Shown here one piece after another: positions 15,211-60,424 of a stretch of 64,000 nt of DNA. The first letter of the stretch is position 1. Each line of letters starts with the position of its first letter. This stretch comes from Gammaproteobacteria bacterium. GTDB lineage: Bacteria > Pseudomonadota > Gammaproteobacteria > Arenicellales > JAANXG01. The stretch lies in NCBI GenBank assembly GCA_024639325.1, contig JAHEIO010000007.1:4679-68678 (forward strand), given 5' to 3'. Both the position numbers and the translations under genes were made by a program. The notes under the pieces were generated by a model. It was not told the DNA's origin. It saw only the letters and a program-made list of their open reading frames with translations, and did no database searches.

Positions 15211-15234
15211 ATATCGGGTTCAGTCAGAGGGTTA

Positions 15235-44897: not shown

Positions 44898-45572
44898 TCA
44901 GTTCCCTCCGCCGGTAACGCTGAGTGCCCCGGCTATGGCAACCGGCGCCAATGTTACGGAAAGTGCCAGCAGCGCACCCAGCAGGGACAGATGGCCTTCG
45001 ATGGGCAAGCCGACGCTGGCGGTTTGCACAGCGGTAGTGGAAAAAATCAGCACCGGTATACACAAGGGCAGCACCAGCAATGACAGCAGCACGCCACCCC
45101 TCTTCACGCTGACGACCAGAGCGGCGCCCAGGGCGCCGAGCAGGCTGAGGATGGGCGTGCCCAGCGTCAGCGTGAAAAACAGCGCGCGCCAGCCCTCGAA
45201 TGACAAACCCATCAATACGGCGAGAAGCGGCGACAACAGGATCAGCGGCAGTCCGGTCAACAACCAGTGTGCCGAGACCTTTGCGGCAACTATCAGTATG
45301 ACCGGATGCGGACTGGTCAACATCTGCTCCAGGCAGCCGTCCTCGAAATCGGTTCTGAACAAACTGTCCTGGGACAGCATGGTGGCCAGTAGTGCCGCAA
45401 CCCAGATAACCCCGGCCGCGATTTCGCTCAGCCTGTTTGGATCTGGCCCCACGCCCAGCGGAAACAGGCTGACGGCGATCAAGAAAAAAAGCAGCGGATT
45501 GATCCACTGGCTGGGCGTGCGCGTGGCGAGTGTCAGGTCCCGGCGAACCAGTGGTAGGTAAATGCTATCCAT
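44898..45572 (-). CDS. ccmB: heme exporter permease CcmB
   Basis: About 224 aa polytopic membrane protein between ccmA and ccmC. Start set at the internal ATG (MDSIYLPLV), overlapping the ccmA stop by 8 nt. Confidence 0.88.
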   Translation of the reverse strand: MDSIYLPLVRRDLTLATRTPSQWINPLLFFLIAVSLFPLGVGPDPNRLSEIAAGVIWVAALLATMLSQDSLFRTDFEDGCLEQMLTSPHPVILIVAAKVSAHWLLTGLPLILLSPLLAVLMGLSFEGWRALFFTLTLGTPILSLLGALGAALVVSVKRGGVLLSLLVLPLCIPVLIFSTTAVQTASVGLPIEGHLSLLGALLALSVTLAPVAIAGALSVTGGGN

Positions 45573-46200
45573 CCGGACCCCGGCTTTCCCCGAGTCTGAC
45601 GGTACGTTGCGCATGCCACCGCCACTCTATGTTCTGATGACTCGTGACGAGCGCCATGCCTCCGGACGTCATGTGTTCGACCAGCAGGTCACGGACGATT
45701 CCCTGCGCGTCACGGTCCAGCGCCGTCAGCGGTTCATCGAGCACCCACAATCTGGCGGCCGAGATCAGCAGTCTGGCAAGAGAGACCCGCTGCCGCTGGC
45801 CTGCGGACAGATGACGGCAAAGCTGTTGCCGGCAATGCGCGATACCCAGCCGCCCCAGGGCCTGGGTCTCCGAAACACCCGATGGTTGACCGGTCAGGGT
45901 CCGATCCATTGTCAGGTTTTCCTCGGCGGTAAGTTCGTCCTTTATCCCGTTCTTGTGCCCAACGAATGACATTTCGTACATGTAGCCTGCTCGATTTTTC
46001 TGGATTGGACGATTGTTCCAGTAAATCGTTCCCTCATCGATCGGCAACAAACCGCTCACCATTCGCAACAGCGTCGTTTTTCCACTGCCGTTGGAACCGT
46101 CGATCTGAATCAGCTCTCCCCGCTCGAGTTGGAAATTCATGCCGGAAAACAACCGCCTCTCGTTCCTTTCGCAACCGAGGTTTTCCACTTTAAGTTTCAC
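45565..46200 (-). CDS. ccmA: heme exporter ATP-binding protein CcmA
   Basis: 211 aa with Walker A GSNGSGKTT, signature LSAGQRQRVSLAR and Walker B LWVLDEP. Confidence 0.9.
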   Translation of the reverse strand: MKLKVENLGCERNERRLFSGMNFQLERGELIQIDGSNGSGKTTLLRMVSGLLPIDEGTIYWNNRPIQKNRAGYMYEMSFVGHKNGIKDELTAEENLTMDRTLTGQPSGVSETQALGRLGIAHCRQQLCRHLSAGQRQRVSLARLLISAARLWVLDEPLTALDRDAQGIVRDLLVEHMTSGGMALVTSHQNIEWRWHAQRTVRLGESRGPDG

Positions 46201-46325: not shown

Positions 46326-47900
46326 TCAGGACATGGCGGAAATTTGCCCCAATATCGCATCCGGATCTAATTTTTTGCCCGCTTCTACGGTTACGACGCG
46401 AGCCTTATCCAATTCGGACAGGGGCTGCGCATGCCGCATCTGCATGTCGAGGACCAGTGTCGTGGCTTGCGACGGATCGCTGCCGGCCGCCAACCGCTTC
46501 GCGATGCGGGATCTCAGCAGCCGCTCGTCACACTGCATATCCAGGACCACCGTCTCCACGCCCCGATTTTCTGCCAGCGAATAAAACAGGTTCCTTTGTT
46601 CGATTCTGAGGAACGTGGCATCGACGATCACGGAGTATTCCGCGTCCAGTACGGTCCCGGCCACATTTACCAGGTGCTCGTAGTTGAGCGCAATGTTCTC
46701 CGGACTGTATCGCTCAGCATCCGCGCCGCCAACGGTTCGATCCCGCTCGACGTCTGATCGAATGTGAATCGCGGGCAGCTTGCGCGCGAGCCTTTCGGAC
46801 CAAAAGCTTTTTCCTGAACCGGAGTAGCCGTGCGTAATGAAAAGCCGGGGATGACGGGCGTCGAGGTATTGCCCCGCCAATTCCAGATGACCACCGACCT
46901 CCAGGACCAATCCGCCCCGCTTCGAAGACTGTTGGTTGCGTATGCTCGCAACTTTGGCTCTGACCATGGCGCGATAGACCAGGTACAACGGCAACAGTTC
47001 CAGGCCTGAATAGTCTCCCGTAACGGACAGATACCTGTTGAGGAACTGGTAGCCGTACTCACTGCATCCGTGATAGTCGAAATCCATGACGACGAACGCG
47101 ACTTCGCTAATCACGTCTATCCACCTGAGCCGCACATCGAACTCGAGGCAATCGAACAGGCGGACCCTGTCTCCAATCACTACCATGTTTCCGAGGTGCA
47201 GATCACCGTGGCACTCCCTGACGAAACCGTCGCCTCCGCGGTGCTCGATGGATTCCTCCAGGTCCTCGAGCCGGGCATCTACCCATGTTTCCAGATAATC
47301 GAGGAGGCGCAAGCTGTCGGAATCCAAGTTCGGCCTCAGAACAACGAAGTTGTCCTTGATCCGCTGACCAACCTGAGCGGGGGTGCTGAATGCCTGGTCA
47401 CTGCAGATCCGGGCCCGATTCAGGTGAAAATCTGCCAACCCACTGGCAAGATCATTAATCAGGCTGATGGGCAGCCCTTTGCAAACCAGCGCGGCCATCT
47501 CGTTGTCGCTATCGAACTGAACCATTTTGACCGCGTACTCTATGGCAGCGCCGCGTCCGTTCAGGACGGGTGCCGTCTCGCTACCCGTTATGGCGACGAC
47601 ATCGAGGTACAACTCCGGTGCCAGCCTGCGGTTCAGTCGCAACTCCTCCATGCACATCGCCTTGCGCTTTGACAGGGTTCCGAAATCGAGGAAGCCCAGT
47701 GAAACCGGCTTTTTTACTTTGTATGCGTAGGGTCCGGTCAGGATGATCCAGGATATATGGGTTTCGACCACCCTAATGCCGCTCGCCGTGTAGTCGTACA
47801 CGGACGGATCACACAGCGACCGGATCAGCGTCGAGGTTGGGAAATCTTGCGTAAAAGATTCGCCTGGATTCGGGTGATCAGACGAGGCGCGGGCCGTCAC
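46326..47900 (-). CDS. aminoglycoside-phosphotransferase-like kinase fused to a P-loop (AAA_33-like) kinase domain
   Basis: 524 aa. Brenner/APH motif CHGDLHLGNMVV ... LFDCLEFD in the N-terminal two thirds. Walker A GYSGSGKS in the C-terminal third. Confidence 0.8.
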   Translation of the reverse strand: MTARASSDHPNPGESFTQDFPTSTLIRSLCDPSVYDYTASGIRVVETHISWIILTGPYAYKVKKPVSLGFLDFGTLSKRKAMCMEELRLNRRLAPELYLDVVAITGSETAPVLNGRGAAIEYAVKMVQFDSDNEMAALVCKGLPISLINDLASGLADFHLNRARICSDQAFSTPAQVGQRIKDNFVVLRPNLDSDSLRLLDYLETWVDARLEDLEESIEHRGGDGFVRECHGDLHLGNMVVIGDRVRLFDCLEFDVRLRWIDVISEVAFVVMDFDYHGCSEYGYQFLNRYLSVTGDYSGLELLPLYLVYRAMVRAKVASIRNQQSSKRGGLVLEVGGHLELAGQYLDARHPRLFITHGYSGSGKSFWSERLARKLPAIHIRSDVERDRTVGGADAERYSPENIALNYEHLVNVAGTVLDAEYSVIVDATFLRIEQRNLFYSLAENRGVETVVLDMQCDERLLRSRIAKRLAAGSDPSQATTLVLDMQMRHAQPLSELDKARVVTVEAGKKLDPDAILGQISAMS

Positions 47901-48496
47901 ACCAGTCTATGGGCCGGATGCCGCCAGTCATCACCATACTGATTCAGTATGTGTTCATACAGATTCTGGTACTCCTTGCGGATGCCTTCACCGAACAGGG
48001 GATCAATCAGCTCACTCGCCTCGACTCCCAGATCGAGTCCACCTCCGCTCTCAGTCAGCTTCTGCGCAGTCCTGAGCAGATTTTCTTCTTCCTTGCGCAT
48101 ATGAGAATACAGCGTCTGAACGTAATCCTTGCCTTTGGCAATGATGTCCTTGCGCAGTACGAAGTCTCCGTATTCCACGGCGAGCACGAGTTCATGAAAC
48201 TCCGATCCTTTGGTGGTGATGTCCTGGTGTTCATTGAAAATTTCATCGACCAGCTCACGCGTCTCCGGCGCCGCTTCCTGCAGTCGTCGAAACATGATGT
48301 CCTCTTTGGGATGGTGCAGCTTGTCCGCGTAGTTGATCATATATCGCATGGCATCATCCAGCACTTCAAGATCTCTCGGTTCCTCGGCGACGAGTGCATC
48401 GATCTCACTGGAGATCAGTTTGAGGATCCGCGCCATGTTGATGTGATCCTGGTGTATTTTCGAGATTAAATCGCTCATCACTGTTTTCCAATCCAA
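47897..48496 (-). CDS. hemerythrin-domain protein
   Basis: 199 aa with His/Glu ligand pattern (HQDH ... HHPKED ... NEHQD ... H). 4-nt overlap with the downstream kinase-fusion gene. Confidence 0.75.
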   Translation of the reverse strand: MDWKTVMSDLISKIHQDHINMARILKLISSEIDALVAEEPRDLEVLDDAMRYMINYADKLHHPKEDIMFRRLQEAAPETRELVDEIFNEHQDITTKGSEFHELVLAVEYGDFVLRKDIIAKGKDYVQTLYSHMRKEEENLLRTAQKLTESGGGLDLGVEASELIDPLFGEGIRKEYQNLYEHILNQYGDDWRHPAHRLV

Positions 48497-49088: not shown

Positions 49089-49571
49089 TTACAATGACGG
49101 GGTAACATCCTTCGCACTGGGTCTGCTTTCGATCAGGGTCTGGCACTCTATACAGCGGGGCACCGCGGGGTCGGCATCCAGCCGGGCCTTGCTGATCGCT
49201 TTGGCACAATCGAGGCAAAGCCCGTATATGTTCTTGTTGATCCGATACAGCGCGTTTTCGATGGCCTGCAGTCGATCGACATGGCTCTGAATCGACGCCA
49301 GCGCAAGATCGGCATAGAGGTCCGCCACCGCTTCGTCGCCACGGTCTCTCACGCTGTCGATCACCTGGTGATGATCCTGCCCGTGTTCATCCTGGAACAG
49401 TTCGGCATTCATCTCGTCCTTGAGCGCATTCCGTTCGATATCGAGTTGCCGCTTGAAGCGGATGATATCAGCGGCGTCGATGTGTACGTGGGCAGGCATT
49501 TCCAGATTCCCGAAGATCGTATTGATAATTGTGTTGTTACGTATTTTGAGAGACCCGCCAGTTTTGGGCAT
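49089..49571 (-). CDS. DksA/TraR family C4 zinc-finger protein
   Basis: C-terminal CLDC-x17-CIEC zinc finger, preceded by a coiled coil containing DRGDEA (DxxDxA-like tip). An alternative start (MPAHVH) lies at 49499. Confidence 0.75.
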   Translation of the reverse strand: MPKTGGSLKIRNNTIINTIFGNLEMPAHVHIDAADIIRFKRQLDIERNALKDEMNAELFQDEHGQDHHQVIDSVRDRGDEAVADLYADLALASIQSHVDRLQAIENALYRINKNIYGLCLDCAKAISKARLDADPAVPRCIECQTLIESRPSAKDVTPSL

Positions 49572-49580
49572 TGATGAATA

Positions 49581-50018
49581 TCAAGACACGGTAACAACCT
49601 GGCAGGGGGCGCTGTGAGAGACCTTCTGCGACACACTGCCGAAGGCCAGACCCTTCAATGCTCCCAGGCCCCGGCTTCCCATGACGATCAATTCCGTGCC
49701 CGTTTCCCTTGCAACGGCAATGATGGTTTTCGCTGGATCACCGGTACGCACAAACGTATCGATGTTCTCGAAACCTCGCCCCCGCAGACGCTCCACCGCC
49801 CTGCCGATCAGTTCCGAAGCTATCAGCTGCTCGTATTGCCATGCCGGTGGACCTTCGATGTTTTCGACCCGGGCGTAGCGTTTCAATTCCTCGGGCAACT
49901 CTCCCCGGCCAACGACGTTGAGTAATAACATCTCATTGCCCTCGCCGGCGAGCCTGCACGCCAGGTCGATCGCCCTGAAGGCGTTATCCGAGCCGTCCAC
50001 GGGGACAAGAATTTTCAT
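49581..50018 (-). CDS. universal stress protein (single UspA domain)
   Basis: 145 aa with MKILVPVDGS ... LIVMGSRGLG ... GSVSQKVSHSAPCQVVTV. Confidence 0.9.
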   Translation of the reverse strand: MKILVPVDGSDNAFRAIDLACRLAGEGNEMLLLNVVGRGELPEELKRYARVENIEGPPAWQYEQLIASELIGRAVERLRGRGFENIDTFVRTGDPAKTIIAVARETGTELIVMGSRGLGALKGLAFGSVSQKVSHSAPCQVVTVS

Positions 50019-50020
50019 TC

Positions 50021-50473
50021 TTAACGTACGGCGACTTCGATTGACTTGGGTTTCACTTCCCGGGCTTTTGGTATCAACAGTGACAGCACACCGTCCCGGT
50101 AGGAAGCGTCTATACCCTCTACGTTGATTTCCGACGGCAGCGTGAAATAGCGCTCAAATCTGCCGGTAAATCGCTCCGTGCGGTGGCGTTTGCTGCCTTT
50201 CTCACCGGTTTCCTTTTCCTCGTGTTTTTCTCCCCGGATCCCCAGCACACCCTTATCGAAAGTAACGTCTATGTCTTCCTTCGCTACGCCGGGCAGATCC
50301 GCCTTGATCAGATAGCTGTTGTCGCTTTCTTCTATATCCACCGAGGGCGACCAGTCAGCGAGCGTCACGGCTCCCTCGTCCTCACTCCTGGCCAGCGCGC
50401 GCCCCGTGGCCTGATTGTAACGGTCGAGAAGGGCTTCCATTTCCCGGAACGGATTCCAGATATTCGTGTTCAT
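50021..50473 (-). CDS. Hsp20/alpha-crystallin small heat-shock protein
   Basis: 150 aa with an alpha-crystallin domain (WSPSVDIEESDNSYLIKADLPGV ... GVLSLLIPK). Confidence 0.92.
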   Translation of the reverse strand: MNTNIWNPFREMEALLDRYNQATGRALARSEDEGAVTLADWSPSVDIEESDNSYLIKADLPGVAKEDIDVTFDKGVLGIRGEKHEEKETGEKGSKRHRTERFTGRFERYFTLPSEINVEGIDASYRDGVLSLLIPKAREVKPKSIEVAVR

Positions 50474-50610: not shown

Positions 50611-51624
50611 TCAGGGATCGACCCGATCGAGGCCGACAAACGTGCCGCCGTTTCGCGTTGTGAGGATTCGCATGAGTGCGGCGAATCGAATACCCGTGGC
50701 GTCGAGGCCGTCCCCTCGCAGAAACTGGACCGGAAAGCCGACCGCGTGGATCCGGACCAGGCGGGATCCATCCTCGCCGGTGCGATTGTAGCGGTCCACG
50801 GTCTTGACCACCTGATCGATGGAGCCCGTAGAGAACTCGTCTCCGAGCACGTAGAGGCTGATCTTCTTGTCAGCCGAATAGAATGTCCTGATCGCGGTGG
50901 TAATCCCTTCTACGGGACTGCTGTTGCTGAATGGATTCCAGCTTGCCAACCGGCTCAGTATGGCCTTTCGCCGCGCCGGTGTATCGGGTATCCATCGGCC
51001 GGAGTACTGTGAGAACATGTATTGACCCATGTCGTTCATTACCTGGATTCCCTTCACCGAAGGATAGATGTCAAGGGTTTCCCTGACCTTGTCCTGCATC
51101 AACCGCCAGCTGAAGTTGAACATGCTGGCGGACGTGTCGATGATGAAAATAATGTACTCGCTATCAACCGGAATGCCGCCAATCGGCGCATCCACGGGTC
51201 TACGCCGGAAGTTGTCGCCCAGCAGCCGCCACATCTCTTCGGTAAGCGACTGCTGGGCTGATTCGAGCTGGCCGGCTATCCGGCGCTGGGTTTCCAGCCG
51301 CTGGGTTGCGTTTCGAAACTCTCCTTCGAGATCGGACAGCTGCTGAAGAAGACGTGCCAACTGCTGCTGCGATTCCGACAGCTGGGGTGTCTTGTTCTGG
51401 AGCTCGCGATTGAGCATACGGGTCTCACCGCGAATCTCGAAAAGCTGCTGCTGAAGATCGGCCACGACGCCGCTCAGGTCCGCCCTGACGCGCTCCAGCA
51501 CCCGGGGTTCACCGGTCTTGGATAACACCAGCACCAGAATGATGGCGCCGAATGCGGAGCAGACTACATCCAGAAAAGAGATGCTGAAGACCTGCGTGTC
51601 CCGCCGGCGGCGCCTCATGGCCAA
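50611..51624 (-). CDS. ExbD/TolR-like membrane anchor - coiled coil - vWA domain protein (paralogue 2)
   Basis: 337 aa. N-terminus MAMRRRRRDTQVFSISFLDVVCSAFGAIILVLVL has an Asp in the TM, as in ExbD (FIDVM). About 110 aa of heptad-rich Q/L/E sequence follows. vWA domain with MIDAS motif DTSAS (IIFIIDTSASM). 10-nt overlap with the upstream paralogue. Confidence 0.7.
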   Translation of the reverse strand: MAMRRRRRDTQVFSISFLDVVCSAFGAIILVLVLSKTGEPRVLERVRADLSGVVADLQQQLFEIRGETRMLNRELQNKTPQLSESQQQLARLLQQLSDLEGEFRNATQRLETQRRIAGQLESAQQSLTEEMWRLLGDNFRRRPVDAPIGGIPVDSEYIIFIIDTSASMFNFSWRLMQDKVRETLDIYPSVKGIQVMNDMGQYMFSQYSGRWIPDTPARRKAILSRLASWNPFSNSSPVEGITTAIRTFYSADKKISLYVLGDEFSTGSIDQVVKTVDRYNRTGEDGSRLVRIHAVGFPVQFLRGDGLDATGIRFAALMRILTTRNGGTFVGLDRVDP

Positions 51625-52718
51625 TCCTTCGAGGGGCTCATGAACGAGCCGCGGCTGCGCACGGCCAGTTTCCAGAACTCACTGGCTGCGAAGGGATCGC
51701 CTTCAATAGGAAAAAGGATGGAATTGACCGGCACGCCGCCGGGCAGCACCCTGACCGCCTGCTTGAAATGACTGAGACGCCGCTTTCCACTTACAGGGCC
51801 GCCGGTATTTCCCGACTGGCCGACCGTCGGTAAACCGTCGGTCAGCAGTATCACGTTGTCCGGCCTGGGCGTGAGACCCCTGATCCGCTCGAATGCCTTG
51901 TACAGGCTTGTTCCACCCCCGGGGACCAGCACGTTCAGTCTGGACATCACCTGGTTCAGGTTCGAAATCTGACTTGCCGCCATCCACTTTCCTTCACCCG
52001 CAAGAAATTTCGCTTCGACATCGAATGCGATGACCTGGAACTCACTGTCCACCGGCAGCTGACTCAACAGCCATTCCACCGTATGCACCGTACGCTGCCA
52101 TTTGCCGGCATTTCGGCGCGCATCGTCGGACATGTTGCGAAGCCTGATGATGTTGACGATGGTTTCGTCCATCATGCTGGCCGAGGCATCGACGAGAATC
52201 AGGATGCGCTTGCCGCCCACTTTCAACCCGGTCAGATACTGCCTGTCCCCTTCGCCGATGAACCGGCGGACGCTGCGGCCCTGTTTCTCGGCCTGCTCGC
52301 GCTCACTTGAAAGCTTTTGCTTTTCGGCATCGACCCGCTTCAGGTCGGATTGCAGTTGATTGATATGCTGTCTTTGCGCGGAGGTAATTTTTTGCAGCGC
52401 GGCAATTTCGATCTTGGTCTGTTCGACGTCCGACAACACCTCCCGGGTTCGGCCTTGGGCCACGATGTTCTGCTGATCGACTTCCTCCAGCGTGTTGCGG
52501 ATCTCGACGAGGTAATCCTCGCCGGTCCGCACCTCGGTTTCCAGCCTCATTACCTCGCCGCGCAGATCCTGTTGCACTTCCTTGCGCTGGGCGAGCGTAT
52601 CGGAGTTGATGATCATCACCAGCAGGATGACGGAACCAAAGCCGCAGAACATGACGTCCAGGAATGAGAGCCCGAAAACGCTGACCTCTCTGCGACGTTT
52701 CACCGCACTCCCCGGCAT
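51615..52718 (-). CDS. ExbD/TolR-like membrane anchor - coiled coil - vWA domain protein (paralogue 1)
   Basis: 367 aa. N-terminus KRRREVSVFGLSFLDVMFCGFGSVILLVMI, then a long coiled coil. vWA domain with MIDAS motif DASAS (ILILVDASASM) and LLTDGLPT. 25 nt downstream of the MotA/ExbB-like gene. Confidence 0.7.
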   Translation of the reverse strand: MPGSAVKRRREVSVFGLSFLDVMFCGFGSVILLVMIINSDTLAQRKEVQQDLRGEVMRLETEVRTGEDYLVEIRNTLEEVDQQNIVAQGRTREVLSDVEQTKIEIAALQKITSAQRQHINQLQSDLKRVDAEKQKLSSEREQAEKQGRSVRRFIGEGDRQYLTGLKVGGKRILILVDASASMMDETIVNIIRLRNMSDDARRNAGKWQRTVHTVEWLLSQLPVDSEFQVIAFDVEAKFLAGEGKWMAASQISNLNQVMSRLNVLVPGGGTSLYKAFERIRGLTPRPDNVILLTDGLPTVGQSGNTGGPVSGKRRLSHFKQAVRVLPGGVPVNSILFPIEGDPFAASEFWKLAVRSRGSFMSPSKDWP

Positions 52719-52743
52719 CCTGGTGCGGTATGCGGGCGATACG

Positions 52744-53544
52744 TCATGCCGGTGACCGTTTCAACCGGTGGATCAGGTAGCGGTCGCAGTAGGTTTCCGT
52801 CTCGAGAACCACACGCTCCTGGGCCAACTGCAGCTGGTGCACGAAGAACATGACCACGATGCTGATGGCCAGAGCCACGAACGTCGAATTGAAGGCCACG
52901 CCGAGACTCTGGGTTACACCGGTGATATCGCCCTCGACGGCGCGGTGTGCCTGGGCAAGCGCATCACTGATCCCTCTCACCGTTCCAATAAAGCCGATGG
53001 AAGGAATGGCCCAGGCGATGTAGCGAATGATCGACAACTCCGATTCCAGTCGATCGGCTTCGGTCTGGCAGACTTCCCGGGCAGCCGCGGACACGTCCTG
53101 AACATTTCCCGTCGCCGAAAAGCGGTGCAGGGCCGCGCCCAATGCGCGCGGAAGCAGTGCTTCCCTCGCTCGCGGCGGCAGCCCATCGAGTCGGCGGTTA
53201 AGCTGGTTCGTATCCAGTTCGGCGTCGTGCTGTTCGTCTTCTCCATCGACCAGGTTGTAGAGAAGTTTTCGCTCGCGATAGCTGGCATAACCCTTGTATC
53301 CCATGATGCTGAAAGCCCACAGTGCGAGGATGAAACATGCTTCCTGCTCGAAATCCCTGATCACCACGAATATGGAACGCTGCTGTACGTACTCGGCGTC
53401 CGCTTTCATTCGGGCGACTTCCCGCTCCATGAATGCGTTGGCGTTTGGCCGGATCACCGCAACGTATAAAGCGTGCACGATGATGATCGCGATCAGCAAT
53501 GAAAACACCTGGTAGACGAATTCGATCGGTATGGCTTTTTTCAT
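52744..53544 (-). CDS. MotA/TolQ/ExbB proton-channel family protein
   Basis: 266 aa. C-terminal channel signature IAWAIPSIGFIGTVRGISDAL ... LGVAFNSTFVALAISIVVMFFV. Also has N-terminal TM helices and a ~90-aa cytoplasmic loop. Confidence 0.8.
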   Translation of the reverse strand: MKKAIPIEFVYQVFSLLIAIIIVHALYVAVIRPNANAFMEREVARMKADAEYVQQRSIFVVIRDFEQEACFILALWAFSIMGYKGYASYRERKLLYNLVDGEDEQHDAELDTNQLNRRLDGLPPRAREALLPRALGAALHRFSATGNVQDVSAAAREVCQTEADRLESELSIIRYIAWAIPSIGFIGTVRGISDALAQAHRAVEGDITGVTQSLGVAFNSTFVALAISIVVMFFVHQLQLAQERVVLETETYCDRYLIHRLKRSPA

Positions 53545-53585
53545 CTTCTCTCGCTCACGGTGCAGTGTGTGTTGAGAAATACGGG

Positions 53586-53849
53586 TTAAATATCCGCGGG
53601 AAATGCTATGACGCTGTCCGGTGAGATGGTCTCCCTGGGTATGAAACGTGCCGGCGGCCCGGATCCCTTGCCCCCACCCTCGGTGGAACCCGCCGCATCA
53701 GTCTCCGGCCGCGCATCGCCGGCGACCGCTTCCGGTTCTGCTTCCAGGGCCGGATCCTGGGGCCGTTCGGGGTCTTGGGCCGATGCGTGCATTCCGAAAA
53801 ACACCAGCGCCAGCAGCGGAAGCAGAAGCAGGCTTCTTTCAATCCGCAT
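53586..53849 (-). CDS. small secreted Pro/Glu/Ala-rich protein
   Basis: Start at the internal ATG (MRIERSLLLLPLLALVFFGMHASAQ) with an AGGA Shine-Dalgarno. Signal peptide, then a low-complexity acidic Pro-rich region, ending RFIPRETISPDSVIAFPADI. 11-nt overlap with the upstream gene. Confidence 0.5.
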   Translation of the reverse strand: MRIERSLLLLPLLALVFFGMHASAQDPERPQDPALEAEPEAVAGDARPETDAAGSTEGGGKGSGPPARFIPRETISPDSVIAFPADI

Positions 53850-56226
53850 ATCGGGCGATCCTAAATCCCAGGTCATTGCGCGGTTCCGCGGCATAGTCCC
53901 GGTAGCTCAACCGCAGCTCACTCAAGGTCGAGTCTTTCCAGCCGGCGCCGCGCACCACGTGGTGACGACCGGATTCCGGGCCCCTGGGGTCCACGGCCGC
54001 GGCGCTCGTCTCCATGGGATACACGGCATAGAAGTCATGGACCCACTCTGCCACATTTCCACCGAGATCGTACAACCCGGCCTCATTCGCGCTGTAGCTG
54101 CCGACAGGCGCCGCAACCGGATTCGCGTCGTCGTATGATGACAGGGTATAGGACAACAGAGAGGACGCGGATCGATCGGCAAAATTCTCGGATCTTGCCG
54201 CAGGGGGATAGGTCTCACCCCAGGCGTATTTTTTTGGTTTGGATCCGATGAACCTTGCCGCCCTCGCCCACTCCGCCTCGGTTGGCAATCGATAACCACT
54301 GGCAGGAGGCTGGATCAGCACCCATCTTTCTCCGTCTTTTCGATAAGCGGGCGGCAGACCGTCCTGAGCGCTGAGCCAGTTCAGGTAGGCCACGGCATCC
54401 TCCCAGCTGATATTGACTGCGGGCTGATCGTCCCGGTCCAGGCTCCGACCGTAGGCGGCGCCGGAAGAATGCTCCGGCCTGAAACGCCGGAACTCACCGT
54501 TGGTCACCTCCCGTGCGCTGAGATAGTAGGGTTTGGTCAATACCACGCGACGAAGATTTTCATTGGCGCGGTGTCCCTGTTCACGACGGGAGGAACCCAT
54601 GGTGAACTCGCCGGGCGTTACCAGCTTGAGCTCCTGGCCCTGGCCGGTACGATTCAAATCCGGCTTGGCGGCAACCGGAGACGGCGTCTTGCCCACGGGG
54701 TTCAGTTCCACTGACAGCTCCTTGCTCACTCCCGGACGCGGCGTCAACTCGATGCGTTTCGATTCATATCCGGGCTTGCTGAACTCGAGCGTGTGCCGCC
54801 TCGCAGTCAGTCGCAATCGCTGACTGGCAGGGCCCATGTCACGGCCGTCAACGGCAACGGTCGCATCGGCCGGATTGGACGTGATGAACACCACACCGTA
54901 CAAGGGGACCAGCTCCAGGGAAAGGGCATCGCTCTCCCCCGGCTCCATAGTAACGGTCCTTTTGACCGTCTCATATCCGGCGCTGGCCAATGCAATTTCA
55001 TGTTTTTCCCAGGGCGACAGCTTCAGATCCAGCGGAGTGCCGCCGTGGTAAACGCCATCAACGGTTACGGTCGCCGGCGGTTTCGTCAACAGCCTCAAAT
55101 TGGCCGGCACCGGCGTAAGCCGTACAACCGGCGCCGCCATGGCGATCCCCGCCTCCACCGTCAATTCAATCGATTCCGGTTGGTATTTTTCGAGCTCCAT
55201 ACCCACCTGGTGACGGCCGGAGAGTATGTCAACGGTTAGCGGGGTGACGCCCGCAATTTCATCACCGAGTATGACGGATGCTCCCTCGGGCTCGGAACGA
55301 AACGTGACCGGCGCCCAGTCAGGAGCCAGTTCGACGCGAAAGACCTGCTCCCTGTCCAGGCCCTCGACATTTATCTCCATTACGGAATCCTGGTAGCGTT
55401 GCTTCGACAGTACGAGACGGCGTGGACCCGCCGCTAGCTTTTTCTCGATCAACGGCGTTGGACCGAGAAATTCTTCGCCGACGCTGACGTCCGCGCCGTC
55501 CGGACGGGAATAGATGGATACCCGGCCCGGCAGTTTTGTCATCTCGAAAGGAAACTCCGTATACCCCCCCCGGACCACGGAGATGGATGCGTCCATCGAT
55601 TCAAAGCCCCGTTTTTCGGCCAGAATACGGTAGTCCCCAGGTAGTGCCAGATAGCGGTCCCGCAGCGGCAAGGGAGGGGGAAATCCCCGTATCTCCATGC
55701 GTTCGGGCTCGGGTGTTACGGAAACCGATATCGGTGTCGCAACGAACACGAAAAGCAGAACCATGACGAGCACGAGAAAAATACCCAGCAGCGCGGCCTT
55801 GAACAATCGCACGCGTCCCGACCGGATGCCGTGCCGCCGAGTCGCGTGGCTTTGAGCTGTTTGTTCATTGCCTGTTTCAGCACCGCTCGTTGTGCCGGAC
55901 TCCTTTTCCACGAATTCGAGCAGCTGACCCGAATAGTCCAGGGAATACTTGACATTACCCACCCCGAGTTCGTCACCGCGGCGTAATGGAGCAGCCTCGT
56001 CAATGGCCGTGTCGTTCAAGCGCAATTCGATCGCGGGCGTTGCCGGAACTATCCACGCGTGACCGTCACGGTTCTCGATATACGCGTACCGGTTGTTGCT
56101 CGGGTCATCCGGGATGGATACATCGGCACCGTGTCCCCCGATTCCGATCCGGTCCGACTCCCGGCACTTGAACGTTCGTCCGTCGGCGGTCTTAACGGTG
56201 ACGGTATTCAAACCCTTTCCCCGCAC
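53839..56226 (-). CDS. FHA-like - TM - 5x PEGA - FGE/SUMF1-like domain protein
   Basis: 795 aa, GTG start. Degenerate N-terminal FHA-like fold (IGIGGHGADVSIPDD ... LRRGDELGVGNVKYSL). One TM (AALLGIFLVLVMVLLFVFV). Five PEGA-type repeats (e.g. VTFRSEPEGASVILGDEIAGVTPL). C-terminal FGE-sulfatase-like domain (GYRLPTEAEWARAA, GNVAEWV, RGAGW, LGFRIA) containing no cysteine. Confidence 0.75.
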   Translation of the reverse strand: MRGKGLNTVTVKTADGRTFKCRESDRIGIGGHGADVSIPDDPSNNRYAYIENRDGHAWIVPATPAIELRLNDTAIDEAAPLRRGDELGVGNVKYSLDYSGQLLEFVEKESGTTSGAETGNEQTAQSHATRRHGIRSGRVRLFKAALLGIFLVLVMVLLFVFVATPISVSVTPEPERMEIRGFPPPLPLRDRYLALPGDYRILAEKRGFESMDASISVVRGGYTEFPFEMTKLPGRVSIYSRPDGADVSVGEEFLGPTPLIEKKLAAGPRRLVLSKQRYQDSVMEINVEGLDREQVFRVELAPDWAPVTFRSEPEGASVILGDEIAGVTPLTVDILSGRHQVGMELEKYQPESIELTVEAGIAMAAPVVRLTPVPANLRLLTKPPATVTVDGVYHGGTPLDLKLSPWEKHEIALASAGYETVKRTVTMEPGESDALSLELVPLYGVVFITSNPADATVAVDGRDMGPASQRLRLTARRHTLEFSKPGYESKRIELTPRPGVSKELSVELNPVGKTPSPVAAKPDLNRTGQGQELKLVTPGEFTMGSSRREQGHRANENLRRVVLTKPYYLSAREVTNGEFRRFRPEHSSGAAYGRSLDRDDQPAVNISWEDAVAYLNWLSAQDGLPPAYRKDGERWVLIQPPASGYRLPTEAEWARAARFIGSKPKKYAWGETYPPAARSENFADRSASSLLSYTLSSYDDANPVAAPVGSYSANEAGLYDLGGNVAEWVHDFYAVYPMETSAAAVDPRGPESGRHHVVRGAGWKDSTLSELRLSYRDYAAEPRNDLGFRIARYAD

Positions 56227-57689
56227 TTGACAACCAGAGACGGCGTTGCGGAGCCCAGGCGCACATTCAACTCAAAGCGCACGTCCCGGTAACCCGTTCT
56301 CGATCCCAGCACGACATACTTACCCGGCAACAAGGCCACCGTCTTTTGCTCGAATTTACCGAAACGTCCAATCCGGTTGATTGTCACATCCGTCAATCCA
56401 TCGGACACCAGCGCTACCGGTACCGGGGTTTCCGCAAGTGCTACCAGTTCGGCAAGCTGGTCGAGTTTTTGCTGCAGTCGCGGACCCTTGTCGAGGTTCG
56501 ATGCCCCGGCGTCCAACAGAGTTCGCGCATTTGCTCTCGGCTGTGACGAACGCAAGCGATCCGGATCCTGCAACCACGCGTTGAGCTGATCGTGGAGCTT
56601 CGCCAGCCGGCGGCCCTGCGCCAGCCCCTGTACCGCGAATTGTGCCTGGGGATCTATGGCGAGCACCGCGTCCAGTTCACGCGACGACTCGTGCCAGCGC
56701 TCGGCCTGTGCGAATTTCTCAGCCCGCGTTCTGTGTTCGCTTATCTTTTGTTGTTGAATCGCGAGCTTCAGCCGCCCGCGGGCGTCGGCCACCCCTGGCG
56801 CATCGACATGAATAGCCTCGGCCGCCGACAGCGCCCGGCCGGCCGCGTCAAACCGCCCGTTTTCCATGGCCGTTAGCGCCTCGGACATCAGCTTATTGAA
56901 ACGCCGGGATTCGATTTCTGCGCCGACCCGGTCCAGTTCAGAACGGGCCCCTGATGCCAGCGGGTCCAGGGCGACCGCCTGTTCCAGCAGGGCTTGCGCG
57001 GACGCCAGGTCGTTCTTTGCCTCCGCCTCCCGGGCCCGGTTCAACAGGCGGGAGAGCTGTTCGACATTCCCGGCACGGGCCGCGCCAGCACGGGCCTGCT
57101 CGTCAGCCGAATCGAGCGCTAGCGCAATCTGGAACTGGCGCCGGGCCGCATCCGCATCAAATCGTTCGAGTGCAATCTCTCCTTCGGTCAGCGCCTTTTG
57201 CAAGCGCTCCGGTGTGGACTCCTCCAGGGCCTCCAGCAGCCGGGTTGCTGCCTCGTATCCTGTTTTCGCCTGCTCGAAACTTTCGTTGGCGAAGGATGCA
57301 TCCGCCTCAGCCACGGCCTGGAGCGCGTTGTCGTACTCCCGCCCGCCCCAGATCGACACCTCCCGTGCCTCCATAACGGCTTGTCGTTTAAGGTACTGCT
57401 GCAACGCTTTTTCCGCTTCGCGCTTGTACCGGGCCCGACGGGTTTCCGATTCGGATGGTGGCGAGGCGTCAACCTGTCGCGCCCCTGCGTCATCGTCCTC
57501 TACCCGGGTCACTGGATCGACGTAGCCGGGTAAAATCCAGATCACCGCAACCACCAATACCAATAATGAAACGAGGGCAATGAGCAGAACCGTGCGAATG
57601 CCTGATCGTCGCGTCGATTTTTCTTTCCGTCGCACCGGCTGCTCGGAGATGCCTTTTTCCTCGCCGGGATCGTCGGGCACGTTATCCAT
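56208..57689 (-). CDS. single-pass membrane protein with periplasmic helical (TPR-like) repeats and a PEGA-like C-terminal domain
   Basis: Start set at the internal ATG (MDNVPDDPGEE) at 57689. TM IRTVLLIALVSLLVLVVAVIWIL. About 330 aa of Ala/Leu/Arg/Glu-rich repeats. C-terminus LLPGKYVVLGSRTGYRDVRFELNV resembles a PEGA strand pattern. Confidence 0.6.
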   Translation of the reverse strand: MDNVPDDPGEEKGISEQPVRRKEKSTRRSGIRTVLLIALVSLLVLVVAVIWILPGYVDPVTRVEDDDAGARQVDASPPSESETRRARYKREAEKALQQYLKRQAVMEAREVSIWGGREYDNALQAVAEADASFANESFEQAKTGYEAATRLLEALEESTPERLQKALTEGEIALERFDADAARRQFQIALALDSADEQARAGAARAGNVEQLSRLLNRAREAEAKNDLASAQALLEQAVALDPLASGARSELDRVGAEIESRRFNKLMSEALTAMENGRFDAAGRALSAAEAIHVDAPGVADARGRLKLAIQQQKISEHRTRAEKFAQAERWHESSRELDAVLAIDPQAQFAVQGLAQGRRLAKLHDQLNAWLQDPDRLRSSQPRANARTLLDAGASNLDKGPRLQQKLDQLAELVALAETPVPVALVSDGLTDVTINRIGRFGKFEQKTVALLPGKYVVLGSRTGYRDVRFELNVRLGSATPSLVVKCGERV

Positions 57690-57718
57690 GTCCACTTCCA
57701 CCAGCCGACCGGTTTTCC

Positions 57719-59020
57719 TCAGCTTATGCCGGAGTTGATTGCGGCATTGTCGCCCTGATTCGAGGGTGCGCCCTGTTCGTCTCCAGCCGGCGTGAAAATA
57801 TTCTCCGCAGGCGGCGTTTCGCCTTCCGTCTGGATAGTGGGAACGGGCAGCCCGGTCTCTGTTCGATATATCTCGCGGAGCAGTTCCCGCCACTTGATGA
57901 ATTGCTCTTCAGCCGAACCGGTCAACTCTGCGGTCTGCCCTTCGATATCCACCACCATCGGTGCGACTTCCGCCTGAAAGGATTCGCCCAGCTCCCGAAT
58001 CGCGTCTTTGTGTATTCTTTTCTGCGCCCCCAGATCTGCGCCGCCTTTGACCGATGCCGCACCCCCAATGACCATAACATCGCGCAGGGTATCGGTATTC
58101 GTATCTCCTCCGAGCACCTCCACCGCGATAGCGCCGATGATCAATGCGCTTCCCAGGAGGTAGCGCTGGGTGCTTTTACGCTTGACTTCCCTCAATGCGG
58201 CAGCTTCCTCAGAGTTCAGCCTGCGCCAATCGAAATAAGGAGACTCCATTTCGGCATAAAGGTTGTCGTAGTACCCGTTGATCACGTCTACCATCAAGTA
58301 CTCGCGCTCGCGAATCTCGAGCACGCGCGCCATCATCGGATCGTTTGTCGCGGGGAGCCTTTGAATCTGGTACGAACCATCCTCGACGTTCAGGTGTTCG
58401 CTGAATGCATCAGGCGCCAGCGACCTGGCGAAGCGCAGCCGTGCGACGCGCCGTATGTGCTCGATCTGTTCCTGAGCCAGCCCCGATTTTTCCCGGAACA
58501 GGTCGTTGGCGATGCGGTTATAGACATCCTGGAAAACCTCTTTCTCCCGGTTTTGACCATAAACGGACTGCGGCACACGTTTCTCGTATTTGCGGCTGAA
58601 CCACTTAGTGCCGCCCGCATCGTAGGCGTGGATCTGTAATACCAGTGACTCCCCGTCCGACCGGTCGATCTGTCCGGCAACGATGATTTCTGCGGCTTCG
58701 GACTGGCCGGGCAGGACCCTGACGGCACCCCAGTGCCCGGTTTGTTGAATGGTGTCGCGGAGGTGGATGGCAATGTAGCGCGATTCGGCGTTCCGAACCT
58801 CTTCGGATACGCCCTTCTCCCTGTCGTCGTCGCTGATAGGACCGGGGTCGAGAACGAATATGCCCACGTCCAGAAGCTCACGTTCCGGCACCTCCCTTTG
58901 GGCGTTGTTGATCAGGGTGTCGGGCACGTGCGGCGCCTCGGGCACCGTCTGGCACGACGTCACAGCGCCCGCCAGTAAAACGGCGAGCAAGGATGTCCGA
59001 GTTGTTTGCCGACGGTTCAT
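57719..59020 (-). CDS. lipoprotein with C-terminal glycine-zipper-like hydrophobic segments
   Basis: 433 aa with lipobox LLAGAVTSC. Later has LLGSALIIGAIAVEVLGG and VMVIGGAASVKGG segments. No family recognised. Confidence 0.6.
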   Translation of the reverse strand: MNRRQTTRTSLLAVLLAGAVTSCQTVPEAPHVPDTLINNAQREVPERELLDVGIFVLDPGPISDDDREKGVSEEVRNAESRYIAIHLRDTIQQTGHWGAVRVLPGQSEAAEIIVAGQIDRSDGESLVLQIHAYDAGGTKWFSRKYEKRVPQSVYGQNREKEVFQDVYNRIANDLFREKSGLAQEQIEHIRRVARLRFARSLAPDAFSEHLNVEDGSYQIQRLPATNDPMMARVLEIREREYLMVDVINGYYDNLYAEMESPYFDWRRLNSEEAAALREVKRKSTQRYLLGSALIIGAIAVEVLGGDTNTDTLRDVMVIGGAASVKGGADLGAQKRIHKDAIRELGESFQAEVAPMVVDIEGQTAELTGSAEEQFIKWRELLREIYRTETGLPVPTIQTEGETPPAENIFTPAGDEQGAPSNQGDNAAINSGIS

Positions 59021-59021
59021 C

Positions 59022-59903
59022 TCAATTCAGGTTTTTCGGCTGCGCCTTCTGCTTTTCTTTATAGCGGCGGTACTCTTCCCACAGTTTTTCCCGCAATACC
59101 GGGTCGGTTTCCTTTTCGGCCGCTTCGCGCAGCTGCCGAGCCACGATATCGTCGTCACCAGCAGAGGGGGGAGCATCGCGGGTCGCCGTCCGGGACCCAT
59201 CGGCTTCGCTCTGACGGCTGGCGCCATGGGCGCCGGTCTGCTGCTCGCCCGGTTCCGCCTGGGAGGCGACTTCTTCACCTTGCGGCTGCTCAGCCCCTTG
59301 TTGCGCCTGCCCCTGCCGGGATCCCTGCCGACCGCCAGGTTCGGCACCGCCATCCGCCGACGTCGCCCCCTCACCTTCACCGCCGGCGGTGCCGGAACCG
59401 CCGGATTCATCTGGAGAACCCGAGCGTTTACGCTGCAGTTCATCCATTTCCCGCAGCAGTAACTCGTCGAACTCCGACATGGATTTGCCTAACTGCCCCT
59501 CTAGGCTCGCAATGCGCTCCTCTTCCGTGCGTTCGCCGGGAAAGGACACCGGGCCCGCCGGCTTCAGTTCATCCGGGTTGCAACCCGGCTCCGGACTCGA
59601 ATCACCGATTTCCAGTTTCAGATCCAGCACGACCCTGCAATTTGCAGACACCAAACGCTTTAGCCGGCCGAGATATGCCAGGTAGTCCTTTGCTTCCGAC
59701 TCGCTTGCCCCACCCTGCGACGGCATGGATCTGAACTCGATGGACGCGGCGGACAATGCGTCCCGTGCCGCACCCAGACTGATCCTCGCCGACTGAAGTT
59801 CTGCATCCCCTGCTGATCTCGCCACGGGTTGTGACGCAATGGCGAGCACCAAAAATGCGGTGCGGATGCCCGCGACCGGCATCGATATGTCCTTACGCCG
59901 CAT
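59022..59903 (-). CDS. secreted protein with Gly/Glu/Gln/Ala-rich low-complexity centre and a charged helical C-terminus
   Basis: Start at the internal ATG (MRRKDISMPVAGIRTAFLVLAIAS), which gives a signal peptide. About 100 aa of low complexity (SGGSGTAGGEGEGATSADGG ... QGQAQQGAEQPQGEE). C-terminus DDDIVARQLREAAEKETDPVLREKLWEEYRRYK. 1 nt before the lipoprotein gene. Confidence 0.55.
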   Translation of the reverse strand: MRRKDISMPVAGIRTAFLVLAIASQPVARSAGDAELQSARISLGAARDALSAASIEFRSMPSQGGASESEAKDYLAYLGRLKRLVSANCRVVLDLKLEIGDSSPEPGCNPDELKPAGPVSFPGERTEEERIASLEGQLGKSMSEFDELLLREMDELQRKRSGSPDESGGSGTAGGEGEGATSADGGAEPGGRQGSRQGQAQQGAEQPQGEEVASQAEPGEQQTGAHGASRQSEADGSRTATRDAPPSAGDDDIVARQLREAAEKETDPVLREKLWEEYRRYKEKQKAQPKNLN

Positions 59904-60022
59904 TTTGAACAGATCCTGGCATATTGACCACAACTCCCGCCAAACCCGAGCCTTCGGCACCTATCCCGCTATGATGGTGTTTGCGCAAATTTCCATAGCT
60001 CCCCCGAACCGGCACGGGCTGC

Positions 60023-60424
60023 TCAGCGGTTTCGACGCTGAATCACGTCTTCGATAATACGACGAAGTTTAGCCTTGTATTCAGCGTAACGTTCTGCCTG
60101 CTCATTGGTTAACAAATCAACGATCTCTTCGTCCTTGGCCTGCGAATACTTCTGGATTTCATGGTAAAGGATGGCGTCTGACGCACCCTGGTTGATGAGT
60201 CTCTGAATCTTTTTGGAGTATTTCAGGTTGATCTCCACCAACTCCCCGGTCTGCTCCGGGTTCAGCTCAAGTACGTCCGCAAGCACCTCCGTCTGAGCCT
60301 CGGCGCGTTGCAGTGGCGTGGTAGCGTAAAATTGGTCGGCCAGACCGGGGTTTTGGGCATGAGCGGCAGCCGCTGACAACAACAGACCGCAAAAAACCAT
60401 ACAGTGCACAGAGTTTGTTTTCAT
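60023..60424 (-). CDS. periplasmic LTXXQ-motif (Spy/CpxP-like) protein
   Basis: 133 aa with a signal peptide (CGLLLSAAAAHAQ). All-helical, with two LTXXQ-type motifs (LNPEQ, LTNEQ). Confidence 0.6.
   Translation of the reverse strand: MKTNSVHCMVFCGLLLSAAAAHAQNPGLADQFYATTPLQRAEAQTEVLADVLELNPEQTGELVEINLKYSKKIQRLINQGASDAILYHEIQKYSQAKDEEIVDLLTNEQAERYAEYKAKLRRIIEDVIQRRNR

Follow-up and report, generated by a model that had tools for sequence, protein, structure and literature searches.

Which machine is built around a TolQ-like channel when the genes next to it encode two proteins with von Willebrand factor A (vWA) heads, and neither TolR nor ExbD? The question is raised by a locus of a Gammaproteobacteria bacterium of the order Arenicellales (assembly GCA_024639325.1), which lies in a 64,000-nucleotide stretch of contig JAHEIO010000007.1 (positions 4,679 to 68,678, hereafter the window). 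An earlier sequence-only reading of the window had singled out nine minus-strand genes, here labelled g1 (60023-60424) to g9 (50611-51624), as an envelope cluster. Eight of these genes, g2 to g9, are found to form a conserved unit, and they probably encode a trans-envelope machine in which a 5:2-type ion motor is combined with an accessory module. The motor part, namely a putative g7 pentamer with an axle made of g8 and g9, is strongly supported by sequence, while any particular physiological output is proposed with much less confidence.

To our knowledge, 5:2 ion motors are the only route by which diderm bacteria energise the outer envelope, and each of the known families (the flagellar stator, Ton, Tol, gliding and the type IX secretion system (T9SS), and Zorya) has opened a field. 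The locus described here represents a further motor family, so far recognised in silico only.

The open reading frames (ORFs) and gaps were found as the sequence-only reading had described them, with nine co-directional genes spaced from a 19-nt overlap to about 120 nt. In order from g1 to g9 the spacings are 119, 1, 29, -19, -11, 41, 25 and -10 nt, and from g2 to g9 neighbouring genes either overlap or are separated by no more than 41 nt throughout. Six of the nine products (493, 790, 87, 266, 367 and 335 amino acids (aa)) recur on two sequence-identical public contigs, which were annotated independently and are 100% identical in the product of the last gene; these annotations differ from the window in alternative starts only (790 vs 795 aa for g5, 335 vs 337 aa for g9). 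All products have a signal peptide or a membrane anchor. For the products other than g7, g8 and g9, this places the bulk of the protein in the periplasm on sequence grounds.

A TolQ-like channel with two vWA-headed partners

The channel gene g7 (52744-53544, minus strand) encodes a 266 aa protein of the TolQ/ExbB/MotA family, predicted to form the pentameric part of a 5:2 motor. It matches Pfam MotA_ExbB at 1e-15, and the NCBIfam models tolQ (6.6e-7, 29 bits vs a cut-off of 221) and exbB2 (20 bits vs a cut-off of 135) well below their thresholds. The best PDB match of the single sequence is a weak one to TolQ (8odt, residues 146-256), and the family profile found nothing in the PDB at E<0.01. 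Residues T188 and T221 align with the pore-lining T145 and T178 of TolQ, and both are invariant in an alignment of 18 homologues. More than 8000 homologues of g7 are present in databases, many of them at least 65% identical.

Directly downstream lie g8 (51615-52718, minus strand; 367 aa) and g9 (50611-51624, minus strand; 337 or 335 aa depending on the start), the latter overlapping the former by 10 nt. In the g8 product a basic N-in tail leads into a transmembrane (TM) helix, from which a helical stalk some 110 residues long extends to a vWA head in the periplasm, and g9, its paralogue, repeats the succession of TM helix, helical stalk and vWA head. The TM helices carry an aspartate within the same SFLDV motif (Asp21 in g8, motif at 52653-52667; Asp19 in g9, motif at 51565-51579), preceded in both by an Arg-rich N-in tail, and neither helix contains His. 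The strict pattern S[FL]LD[VILM] is present in 59/71 members of the g8 family and 48/60 of the g9 family, and the S-F-L-D columns, including the Asp, are at least 95% conserved.

The vWA head of g8 is recognised by Pfam (VWA_2, 8.7e-7). No Pfam family is dedicated to g9-type proteins, the head of g9 is not recognised by Pfam or NCBIfam, and its family profile retrieved coiled coils only from PDB sequences. The AlphaFold2 model of g9 consists of a single helix (17-138) followed by an alpha/beta domain (157-330; pLDDT ~80-93), and the top Foldseek matches of this model in the PDB are vWA domains, namely ITIH1 (1.8e-7), vWF A3, CMG2 and Rpn10. Some NCBI records of g9 homologues are indeed named 'VWA domain-containing protein'. 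Moreover, the g8 and g9 families align as full-length paralogues (hhalign 99.7%, E 5.4e-26, 315 columns) at 23-25% identity. The metal-ion-dependent adhesion site (MIDAS) is intact in both heads, being formed by D177-A-S-A-S181 (52176-52190), T270 and D294 in g8 and by D163-T-S-A-S167 (51124-51138) in g9, and its DxSxSM signature is kept in all 131 orthologues inspected (71/71 for g8, 60/60 for g9).

Two further features of the pair are held with unusual strictness. The length of g8 is 360-371 aa in 71/73 orthologues and that of g9 is 326-341 aa in 60/61, which suggests that the stalk may act as a ruler. The C-terminus of g8 is D-W-P in 71/71 orthologues (51618-51626 in the window), an ending which suggests a docking or recognition motif. 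On a wider scale, 3331 representative clusters belong to the g8/g9 superfamily at E<=1e-3, and 491 still do so at E<=1e-30; seven distant members, taken from the lower part of 150 listed matches, keep both the FLD[VI] helix and a DTSGSM site.

The sequence-only reading had thus been right to propose a MotA/TolQ/ExbB-type channel and single-pass partners with a membrane Asp and MIDAS-intact vWA heads on stalks. It had also stated that the TonB C-terminal domain, OmpA/MotB-type domains and Pal are missing. Pfam and NCBIfam searches of the nine proteins, extended to the flanking ORFs, agree with it, having returned no ExbD, TolR, MotB, TonB_C or OmpA domain, and no ExbD, TolR, MotB or OmpA is encoded beside the channel gene in the related loci inspected.

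This combination has a precedent. Williams-Jones et al. (2025, Mol Biol Evol, June 2025; PMC12204202) described in silico a group of TolQ-like channels which lack TolR or ExbD and are paired with two vWA proteins. These 'transpore-helix' (TPH) vWA proteins occur 'predominantly in heterologous pairs' and without the SHLS motif, and AlphaFold3 models of complexes of the channel with a vWA pair place the Asp-bearing helices inside the pentamer, with the pair of Asp residues coordinated by a Thr ring (PMC12204202). The family is found mainly in Proteobacteria, its description rests on models and on neighbourhood plots seeded from Idiomarina, and no function was assigned to it (PMC12204202).

The locus shares the features of that family: a MotA_ExbB channel without syntenic tolR, exbD or motB, next to it a heterologous pair of genes for membrane-tethered vWA proteins, a conserved Asp (D21, D19) in N-terminal helices devoid of SHLS or His, and the Thr ring T188/T221. 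By sequence features it is therefore assigned to the TPH-vWA motor family, the comparison with the reference locus of Idiomarina loihiensis being by description only. The text of PMC12204202 differs from what is found here in being silent on the five upstream genes g2 to g6 and on an optional FHA protein (gX, see below), and g2-g6 are likewise not mentioned in other searchable papers. The view of the sequence-only reading that no characterised system has this gene set consequently stands for experimental characterisation and for the accessory genes, but not for the motor core, which is already described computationally (PMC12204202); the accessory module, the breadth of distribution and the variants are new here.

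Conservation, variants and boundaries of the unit

When one genome per species was scanned, relatives of g7 turned up in at least 588 species genomes. The best 80 of these were examined, and the synteny counts rest on the 49 loci retrieved with enough flanking sequence. The genes g2-g3-g4-g5-g7-g8-g9 are colinear in 42/49 loci; taken singly, g2 is present in 45/49, g3 in 48/49, and g4 in 49/49, as is a small ORF at the position of g6. Among the best 80, hosts include many Gammaproteobacteria (cultured Microbulbifer, Thiogranum, Woeseiaceae, Arenicellales and Porticoccus), as well as Desulfobulbaceae, Acidobacteriota (Holophagae and Marinacidobacterales) and one Isosphaeraceae bin. Species of Methylophaga also carry a relative of g9, recorded in RefSeq as a 'hypothetical protein'. 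The tight synteny over three phyla bears out the expectation that these genes are conserved together in other genomes, while the genes flanking the cluster vary between lineages.

Could the arrangement be a fortuitous juxtaposition of unrelated envelope genes which form no functional unit? A scan of the locus for promoters and terminators gave no signals above shuffled background, and the boundaries of the operon are not set by sequence signals, as such a reading would allow. Against it stand the order kept in 42 of the 49 loci, over three phyla and between unrelated flanks, and the translational overlaps; chance juxtaposition is effectively refuted by the synteny data.

The conservation of the operon across phyla indicates strong purifying selection. 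The GC content of the cluster (0.57-0.61) matches that of the rest of the window (0.54-0.62), and collections of plasmids and phages contain no copy of the cluster, in line with the earlier suggestion of a resident rather than a mobile system. As judged from these sequence data, its eight genes are obligately co-inherited, and the unit is resident, chromosomal and probably vertically maintained. The identity of g7 between Gammaproteobacteria, Desulfobulbaceae and Acidobacteriota, at 56-65%, is unusually high for hosts so distant, and would have to be explained either by very strong constraint or by transfer of the complete operon between phyla.

These distribution data also bear on a Zorya-type anti-phage or conflict system, in which a MotA-like sensor of envelope perturbation is coupled to effectors. 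Shared with Zorya are the MotA-like pentamer (predicted here), the atypical nature of its partner and the presence of a long helical extension, and there is a weak match to ZorA (E 0.0017). In Zorya, however, the long tail of ZorA is cytoplasmic, ZorB binds peptidoglycan and the effectors ZorC and ZorD are present, none of which applies to the locus. The cluster encodes no nuclease, helicase or other effector, and the PADLOC scan of its proteins returned no real defence match, those of g8 and g9 being coiled-coil noise. A single conserved copy in at least 588 species, a channel 56-65% identical across phyla, a native base composition and absence from plasmids and phages are also unlike a defence island. 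A Zorya-type role is very unlikely, and identity with Zorya was rejected, the ZorA match being the only one, with no ZorB, ZorC, ZorD or ZorE.

Eight genes (59903 down to 50611) make up the unit, and not nine as in the sequence-only reading, because g1 adjoins the cluster in 1/49 loci, that of L006, which is among the closest relatives retrieved. Three kinds of variation were observed around this core. The most frequent is the presence, between g7 and g8 in 33/49 loci, of gX, a cytoplasmic protein of about 440 aa (e.g. L003:10805-12133 and L068:10833-12137). Its C-terminal domain is an FHA domain: 12/38 members match Pfam FHA and Yop-YscD_cpl, with a best FHA value of 1.6e-13, and the PDB matches are the FHA domains of Ki-67, EmbR and EssC. 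Its N-terminal domain belongs to no family and has a faint Hsp70/MreB (actin)-like similarity (E 0.3-0.7), and gX may regulate the motor as an actin-fold protein. No homologue of gX is encoded anywhere in the window. The earlier statement that no ATPase is present is consequently valid for the cluster and the window, but has to be qualified for the 33 relatives with gX.

The second variation concerns about 20 loci, a Cellvibrionales/Pseudomonadales-like subset, in which two small proteins of about 225-230 aa and of no known family are added beside the cluster, downstream in the same direction in 12 loci and upstream and divergent in 9. Lipoboxes are present in both examples read (L068 and L046; in L068 the genes lie at 14222-14914 and 14932-15669). 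The same subset has an upstream protein of about 433 aa, which in L068 (1232-2587) contains TPR and a borderline TonB_C match (24.1 bits vs a cut-off of 24.6).

This last arrangement is one of the points which the locus shares with the Ton system, since in these related loci the TPR protein is placed just upstream and the scanned example, L068, has the borderline TonB_C; the others are a channel of the ExbB family, a partner helix with an Asp and the transfer of energy to the outer envelope. It differs from Ton in that ExbD, TonB and a TonB-dependent receptor are missing from the window.

The third variation was recorded in four loci, L045, L050, L053 (5644-9966) and L059, where ppk and ppx (polyphosphate kinase and exopolyphosphatase) are inserted on the opposite strand between g5 and g7. 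These loci are from metagenome-assembled genomes, one of them of Candidatus Foliamicus.

The accessory proteins

The largest product of the cluster is g5 (53839-56226, minus strand), a bitopic inner-membrane protein of 795 aa. A degenerate FHA-like domain (residues ~1-100) is cytoplasmic and is followed by a TM helix (144-162), about five PEGA beta-sandwiches (161-510) and a domain of FGE/SUMF1 fold (535-792). Four PEGA units are matched by Pfam (7e-45), with a fifth PEGA-like unit besides, and the C-terminal domain matches FGE-sulfatase at 9e-45. The sole Cys of the protein is residue 21, remote from the FGE domain, and the catalytic Cys pair of formylglycine-generating enzymes (motif GGS-x-x-C-x-x-x-x-C) is replaced, the aligned segment being RGAGWKDSTLSELRLSYR. 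A role of g5 as a catalytic formylglycine-generating enzyme was consequently rejected.

The N-terminus of g5 (~100 aa) is homologous to the C-terminal FHA domain of gX (hhalign 95.8%, E 7.8e-9). Orthologues of g5 fall into two length classes of about 800 and about 690 aa. The idea that FHA is fused to g5 only in loci without gX was dropped, because long g5 co-occurs with gX (e.g. in L003, L025 and L031).

The architecture of g5 invites a comparison with the T9SS, and in particular with PorLM/PorKN (GldKLMN). A T9SS-like or gliding-like engine for secretion or surface translocation would have the motor drive a periplasmic ring made of the g5 FGE domain, g3 and g4, in the way that PorLM acts on PorKN, so that a surface protein is exported or moved; this reading is a particular form of the output step and does not concern the motor itself. 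Shared with the T9SS are a 5:2-type ion motor, an extended dimeric subunit which spans the periplasm, an FGE-fold protein and lipoproteins. The best NCBIfam match of the g5 FGE domain is GldK/PorK (9.5e-31), PorK/GldK structures are matched in the PDB at 7e-15, and the loss of the catalytic cysteines is expected of a structural FGE fold. Furthermore, the succession of FHA, TM helix and repeats in g5 recalls the ring-forming YscD/PrgH of the type III secretion system, to which the Yop-YscD_cpl matches of gX may be added.

The GldK score, however, is 107.5 bits, far under the cut-off of 350, and enzymatic FGEs score slightly better in the PDB (2e-17), so that the two kinds of match are about equal. 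GldL/PorL is not a MotA_ExbB-family sequence, and g5 is anchored in the inner membrane, its FGE-fold domain behind a PEGA array, whereas PorK is an outer-membrane lipoprotein. The locus has no GldL, GldM or GldN (NCBIfam) and no homologue of PorL, PorM, PorN or Sov/SprA, and the operon contains neither an outer-membrane translocon nor an evident cargo. A T9SS-like engine is, on this balance, unlikely.

A second bitopic inner-membrane protein is encoded by g4 (56208-57689, minus strand; 493 aa), with a TM helix at 34-52, periplasmic TPR repeats at ~120-370 and a PEGA-like C-terminal sandwich at ~420-490. Its family profile matches consensus TPR in the PDB at 1.3e-30, as well as Hop and DNAJC3, and its C-terminus aligns with the PEGA repeats of g5 (hhalign 86-88%).

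The Bat (aerotolerance) operon of Bacteroides likewise pairs vWA proteins anchored in the membrane with TPR proteins, and this pairing raises the possibility of a complex of Bat or vWA-TPR type, static and metal-dependent, which acts as an envelope scaffold or in stress, with the MotA-like protein serving only as an anchor or ion leak. Stress genes (Hsp20, Usp and DksA-like) also lie just downstream in the window, but they are not kept beside the cluster in other genomes. The MoxR AAA+ ATPase and DUF58, which define Bat, are absent, no AAA or DUF58 domain having been found in the cluster by Pfam or NCBIfam, and identity with the Bat operon was rejected. Moreover, near-invariance of the Asp in the TM helix, of the Thr ring and of the length of the stalk is predicted by an ion-driven motor, not by a passive anchor. 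A static complex is therefore considered quite improbable.

The lipoprotein g3 (57719-59020, minus strand; 433 aa) has a lipobox V-T-S-C23 (58952-58963) with Gln at +2, and Cys23 is invariant in 48 homologues. It is probably located in the outer membrane, since there is no Asp at +2. An alpha/beta domain (~45-220) precedes a long hairpin of helices (228-349), after which the protein ends in a small beta/alpha unit with a disordered tail. It matches no family in Pfam or NCBIfam, and the family profile gave one spurious short match in the PDB. In the AlphaFold2 model (pLDDT 80, predicted template-modelling score 0.76), the alpha/beta domain has Foldseek matches in the PDB to many TolB entries, in the N-terminal domain (~155 columns, 7.7e-4 to 0.06, prob 0.8-1.0), and to LptE (0.045).

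The tip of the hairpin (residues 287-305; 58106-58162 in the window) is Gly/Ala-rich, hydrophobic and of low model confidence. Glycine-zipper membrane hairpins occur in outer-membrane lipoproteins such as SlyB, which the tip recalls, although no Pfam match supports the likeness.

Two small secreted proteins complete the set. The first, g2 (59022-59903, minus strand; 293 aa, with a possible ORF start at 59960), has a signal-peptide-like N-terminus and is largely disordered, Gly-rich and acidic, with 50 acidic vs 38 basic residues. Its conservation is limited to a C-terminal helix, D-D-D-[IV]-V-A-R-Q-L-R-E-A-A-E-K-E-T-D-P-x-L-R-E-K-L-W-E-E-Y (59058-59156), which is strongly conserved, with 70-88% identity at distant loci (tblastn). 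A weak match to DUF6381 (0.004) is under the cut-off. The second, g6 (53586-53849, minus strand; 87 aa), begins with a signal peptide; its middle part is variable and either acidic or Pro-rich, and its C-terminus carries a conserved strand-like motif, F-x-P-x-E-x-I-S-x-D-S-x-[IV]-x-F-P-x-D-I (53589-53645). It has no match in Pfam, NCBIfam or PADLOC, and 65 of the 74 ORFs at its position end in [FYW]PxD[IVLM].

Most of what the sequence-only reading had proposed for these proteins is upheld. The TM helical-repeat protein is the TPR protein g4, the lipoprotein is g3, and the PEGA array with a cysteine-free FGE/SUMF1-like domain is that of g5, while the cytoplasmic FHA-like domain receives indirect support from its alignment with gX. 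Its remark that a TolB-like propeller is missing is correct, but the N-terminal domain of g3 has a TolB-N/LptE-like fold.

Proposed mechanism and neighbouring genes

How might these parts work together? By comparison with the 5:2 motors MotAB, ExbBD, TolQR and GldLM, g7 would form a pentameric channel around a g8/g9 heterodimer, the helices with the protonatable D21 and D19 lying inside the pentamer beside the Thr ring of T188 and T221. Proton flow through this Asp/Thr site would rotate or displace the g8/g9 axle, and the motion would travel along the stalk (~100-110 residues, ~15 nm) to the two MIDAS-intact vWA heads in the periplasm, toward the outer membrane. There, a metal ion bound by the MIDAS may take hold of an acidic side chain in another product of the operon, the best candidates being g3, the acidic g2 and the conserved acidic C-terminal strand of g6. 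In the periplasm, g5 and g4 would enclose the motor in a scaffold or cage.

As a result, a structure near the outer membrane would be pulled on or remodelled at the expense of the proton-motive force, by a logic like that of Tol-Pal and with a parts list like that of PorLM acting on the PorK/N ring. Outer-membrane tethering or homeostasis and the handling of surface proteins are possible outputs. For this output end the proposal draws on conserved synteny, topology and fold.

The resemblance to Tol-Pal extends to several components. The channel protein is homologous, with TolQ as its best PDB match, the pore Thr conserved and the Asp helix predicted inside the channel, and both systems have a TPR protein, a lipoprotein (with the TolB-N-like fold in g3) and the logic of force transduction across the envelope. 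The locus differs in that the periplasmic domain of TolR, TolA, the TolB beta-propeller and an OmpA-like Pal are all missing (Pfam, NCBIfam). Furthermore, the axle itself here bears a long stalk and a binding head, fusing motor and transducer, and the TPR protein is anchored in the inner membrane.

Several observations count against a force-transducing machine of this kind. Neither an outer-membrane beta-barrel nor a peptidoglycan-binding domain was found among the products of the cluster. The TolB-N-like match of g3 is moderate (template-modelling score ~0.18-0.2 on full lengths, root-mean-square deviation ~5.5 A over ~155 columns), and the fold is common to several unrelated lipoproteins. 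The FHA-like domain of g5 is without the canonical phosphothreonine-binding residues and is missing from about 40% of orthologues, and on both grounds it is not considered essential to the mechanism. The 5:2 stoichiometry, the g8/g9 heterodimer and the contacts of the vWA heads with g2, g3, g5 and g6 are putative. No g9 paralogue follows g8 in the four loci with ppk and ppx, where a homodimer of g8 may suffice or the second gene may be located elsewhere. Lastly, the literature was found to contain no experiments on any member of the family, and the papers citing PMC12204202 add no data.

A trans-envelope machine with an ion motor and an accessory module remains the preferred reading. In a stronger form it would make of the eight genes a complete and uncharacterised class of proton-driven machine, ranking alongside Ton, Tol-Pal, the flagellar stator and the T9SS motor. 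Its rotating axle, a heterodimeric coiled coil ending in two metal-dependent vWA 'hands', would itself transduce the force and work against a dedicated periplasmic cage of TPR and PorK-like FGE-on-PEGA proteins and an outer-membrane lipoprotein, and its cellular function would be new. This form is advanced tentatively, the balance tipping somewhat against it. If it were true, a function such as outer-membrane tethering or the handling of lipoproteins or surface proteins would be added to the repertoire of marine and sediment diderms, and the accessory module would supply the output end which has so far been missing from the motor noticed in 2025.

What the present analysis adds is a chromosomal and highly conserved motor with five constant partners, periplasmic or facing the outer membrane, and with relatives of the channel in at least 588 species genomes of at least three phyla. 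The role of TolQ-vWA motors is now directly testable, as candidate ligands are named and the targets are D19/D21, T188/T221 and the MIDAS DxSxS, and the occurrence in the cultivable genera Microbulbifer and Methylophaga makes genetics feasible.

On the upstream side the unit is bordered, across the gap of 119 nt before g2, by g1 (60023-60424, minus strand), a neighbour outside the conserved set which encodes a small periplasmic helical protein of 133 aa. It is DUF4890-like, with a score just under the Pfam cut-off (28 vs 29.7 bits), and holds two repeats of the L-x-x-E-Q type (ELNPEQ and LTNEQ). Downstream of g9, after a gap of 137 nt, the stress genes mentioned above (49089-50473) are co-directional on the minus strand and encode an Hsp20 small heat-shock protein, a universal stress protein and a DksA/TraR-type zinc-finger protein. 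Farther downstream, the Pfam annotation of the identical contigs places a hemerythrin-like protein at 47897-48496, a 524 aa protein with an AAA_33 kinase-like domain at 46326-47900, and the start of the ccmABCD operon for cytochrome c maturation at 45565-46200.

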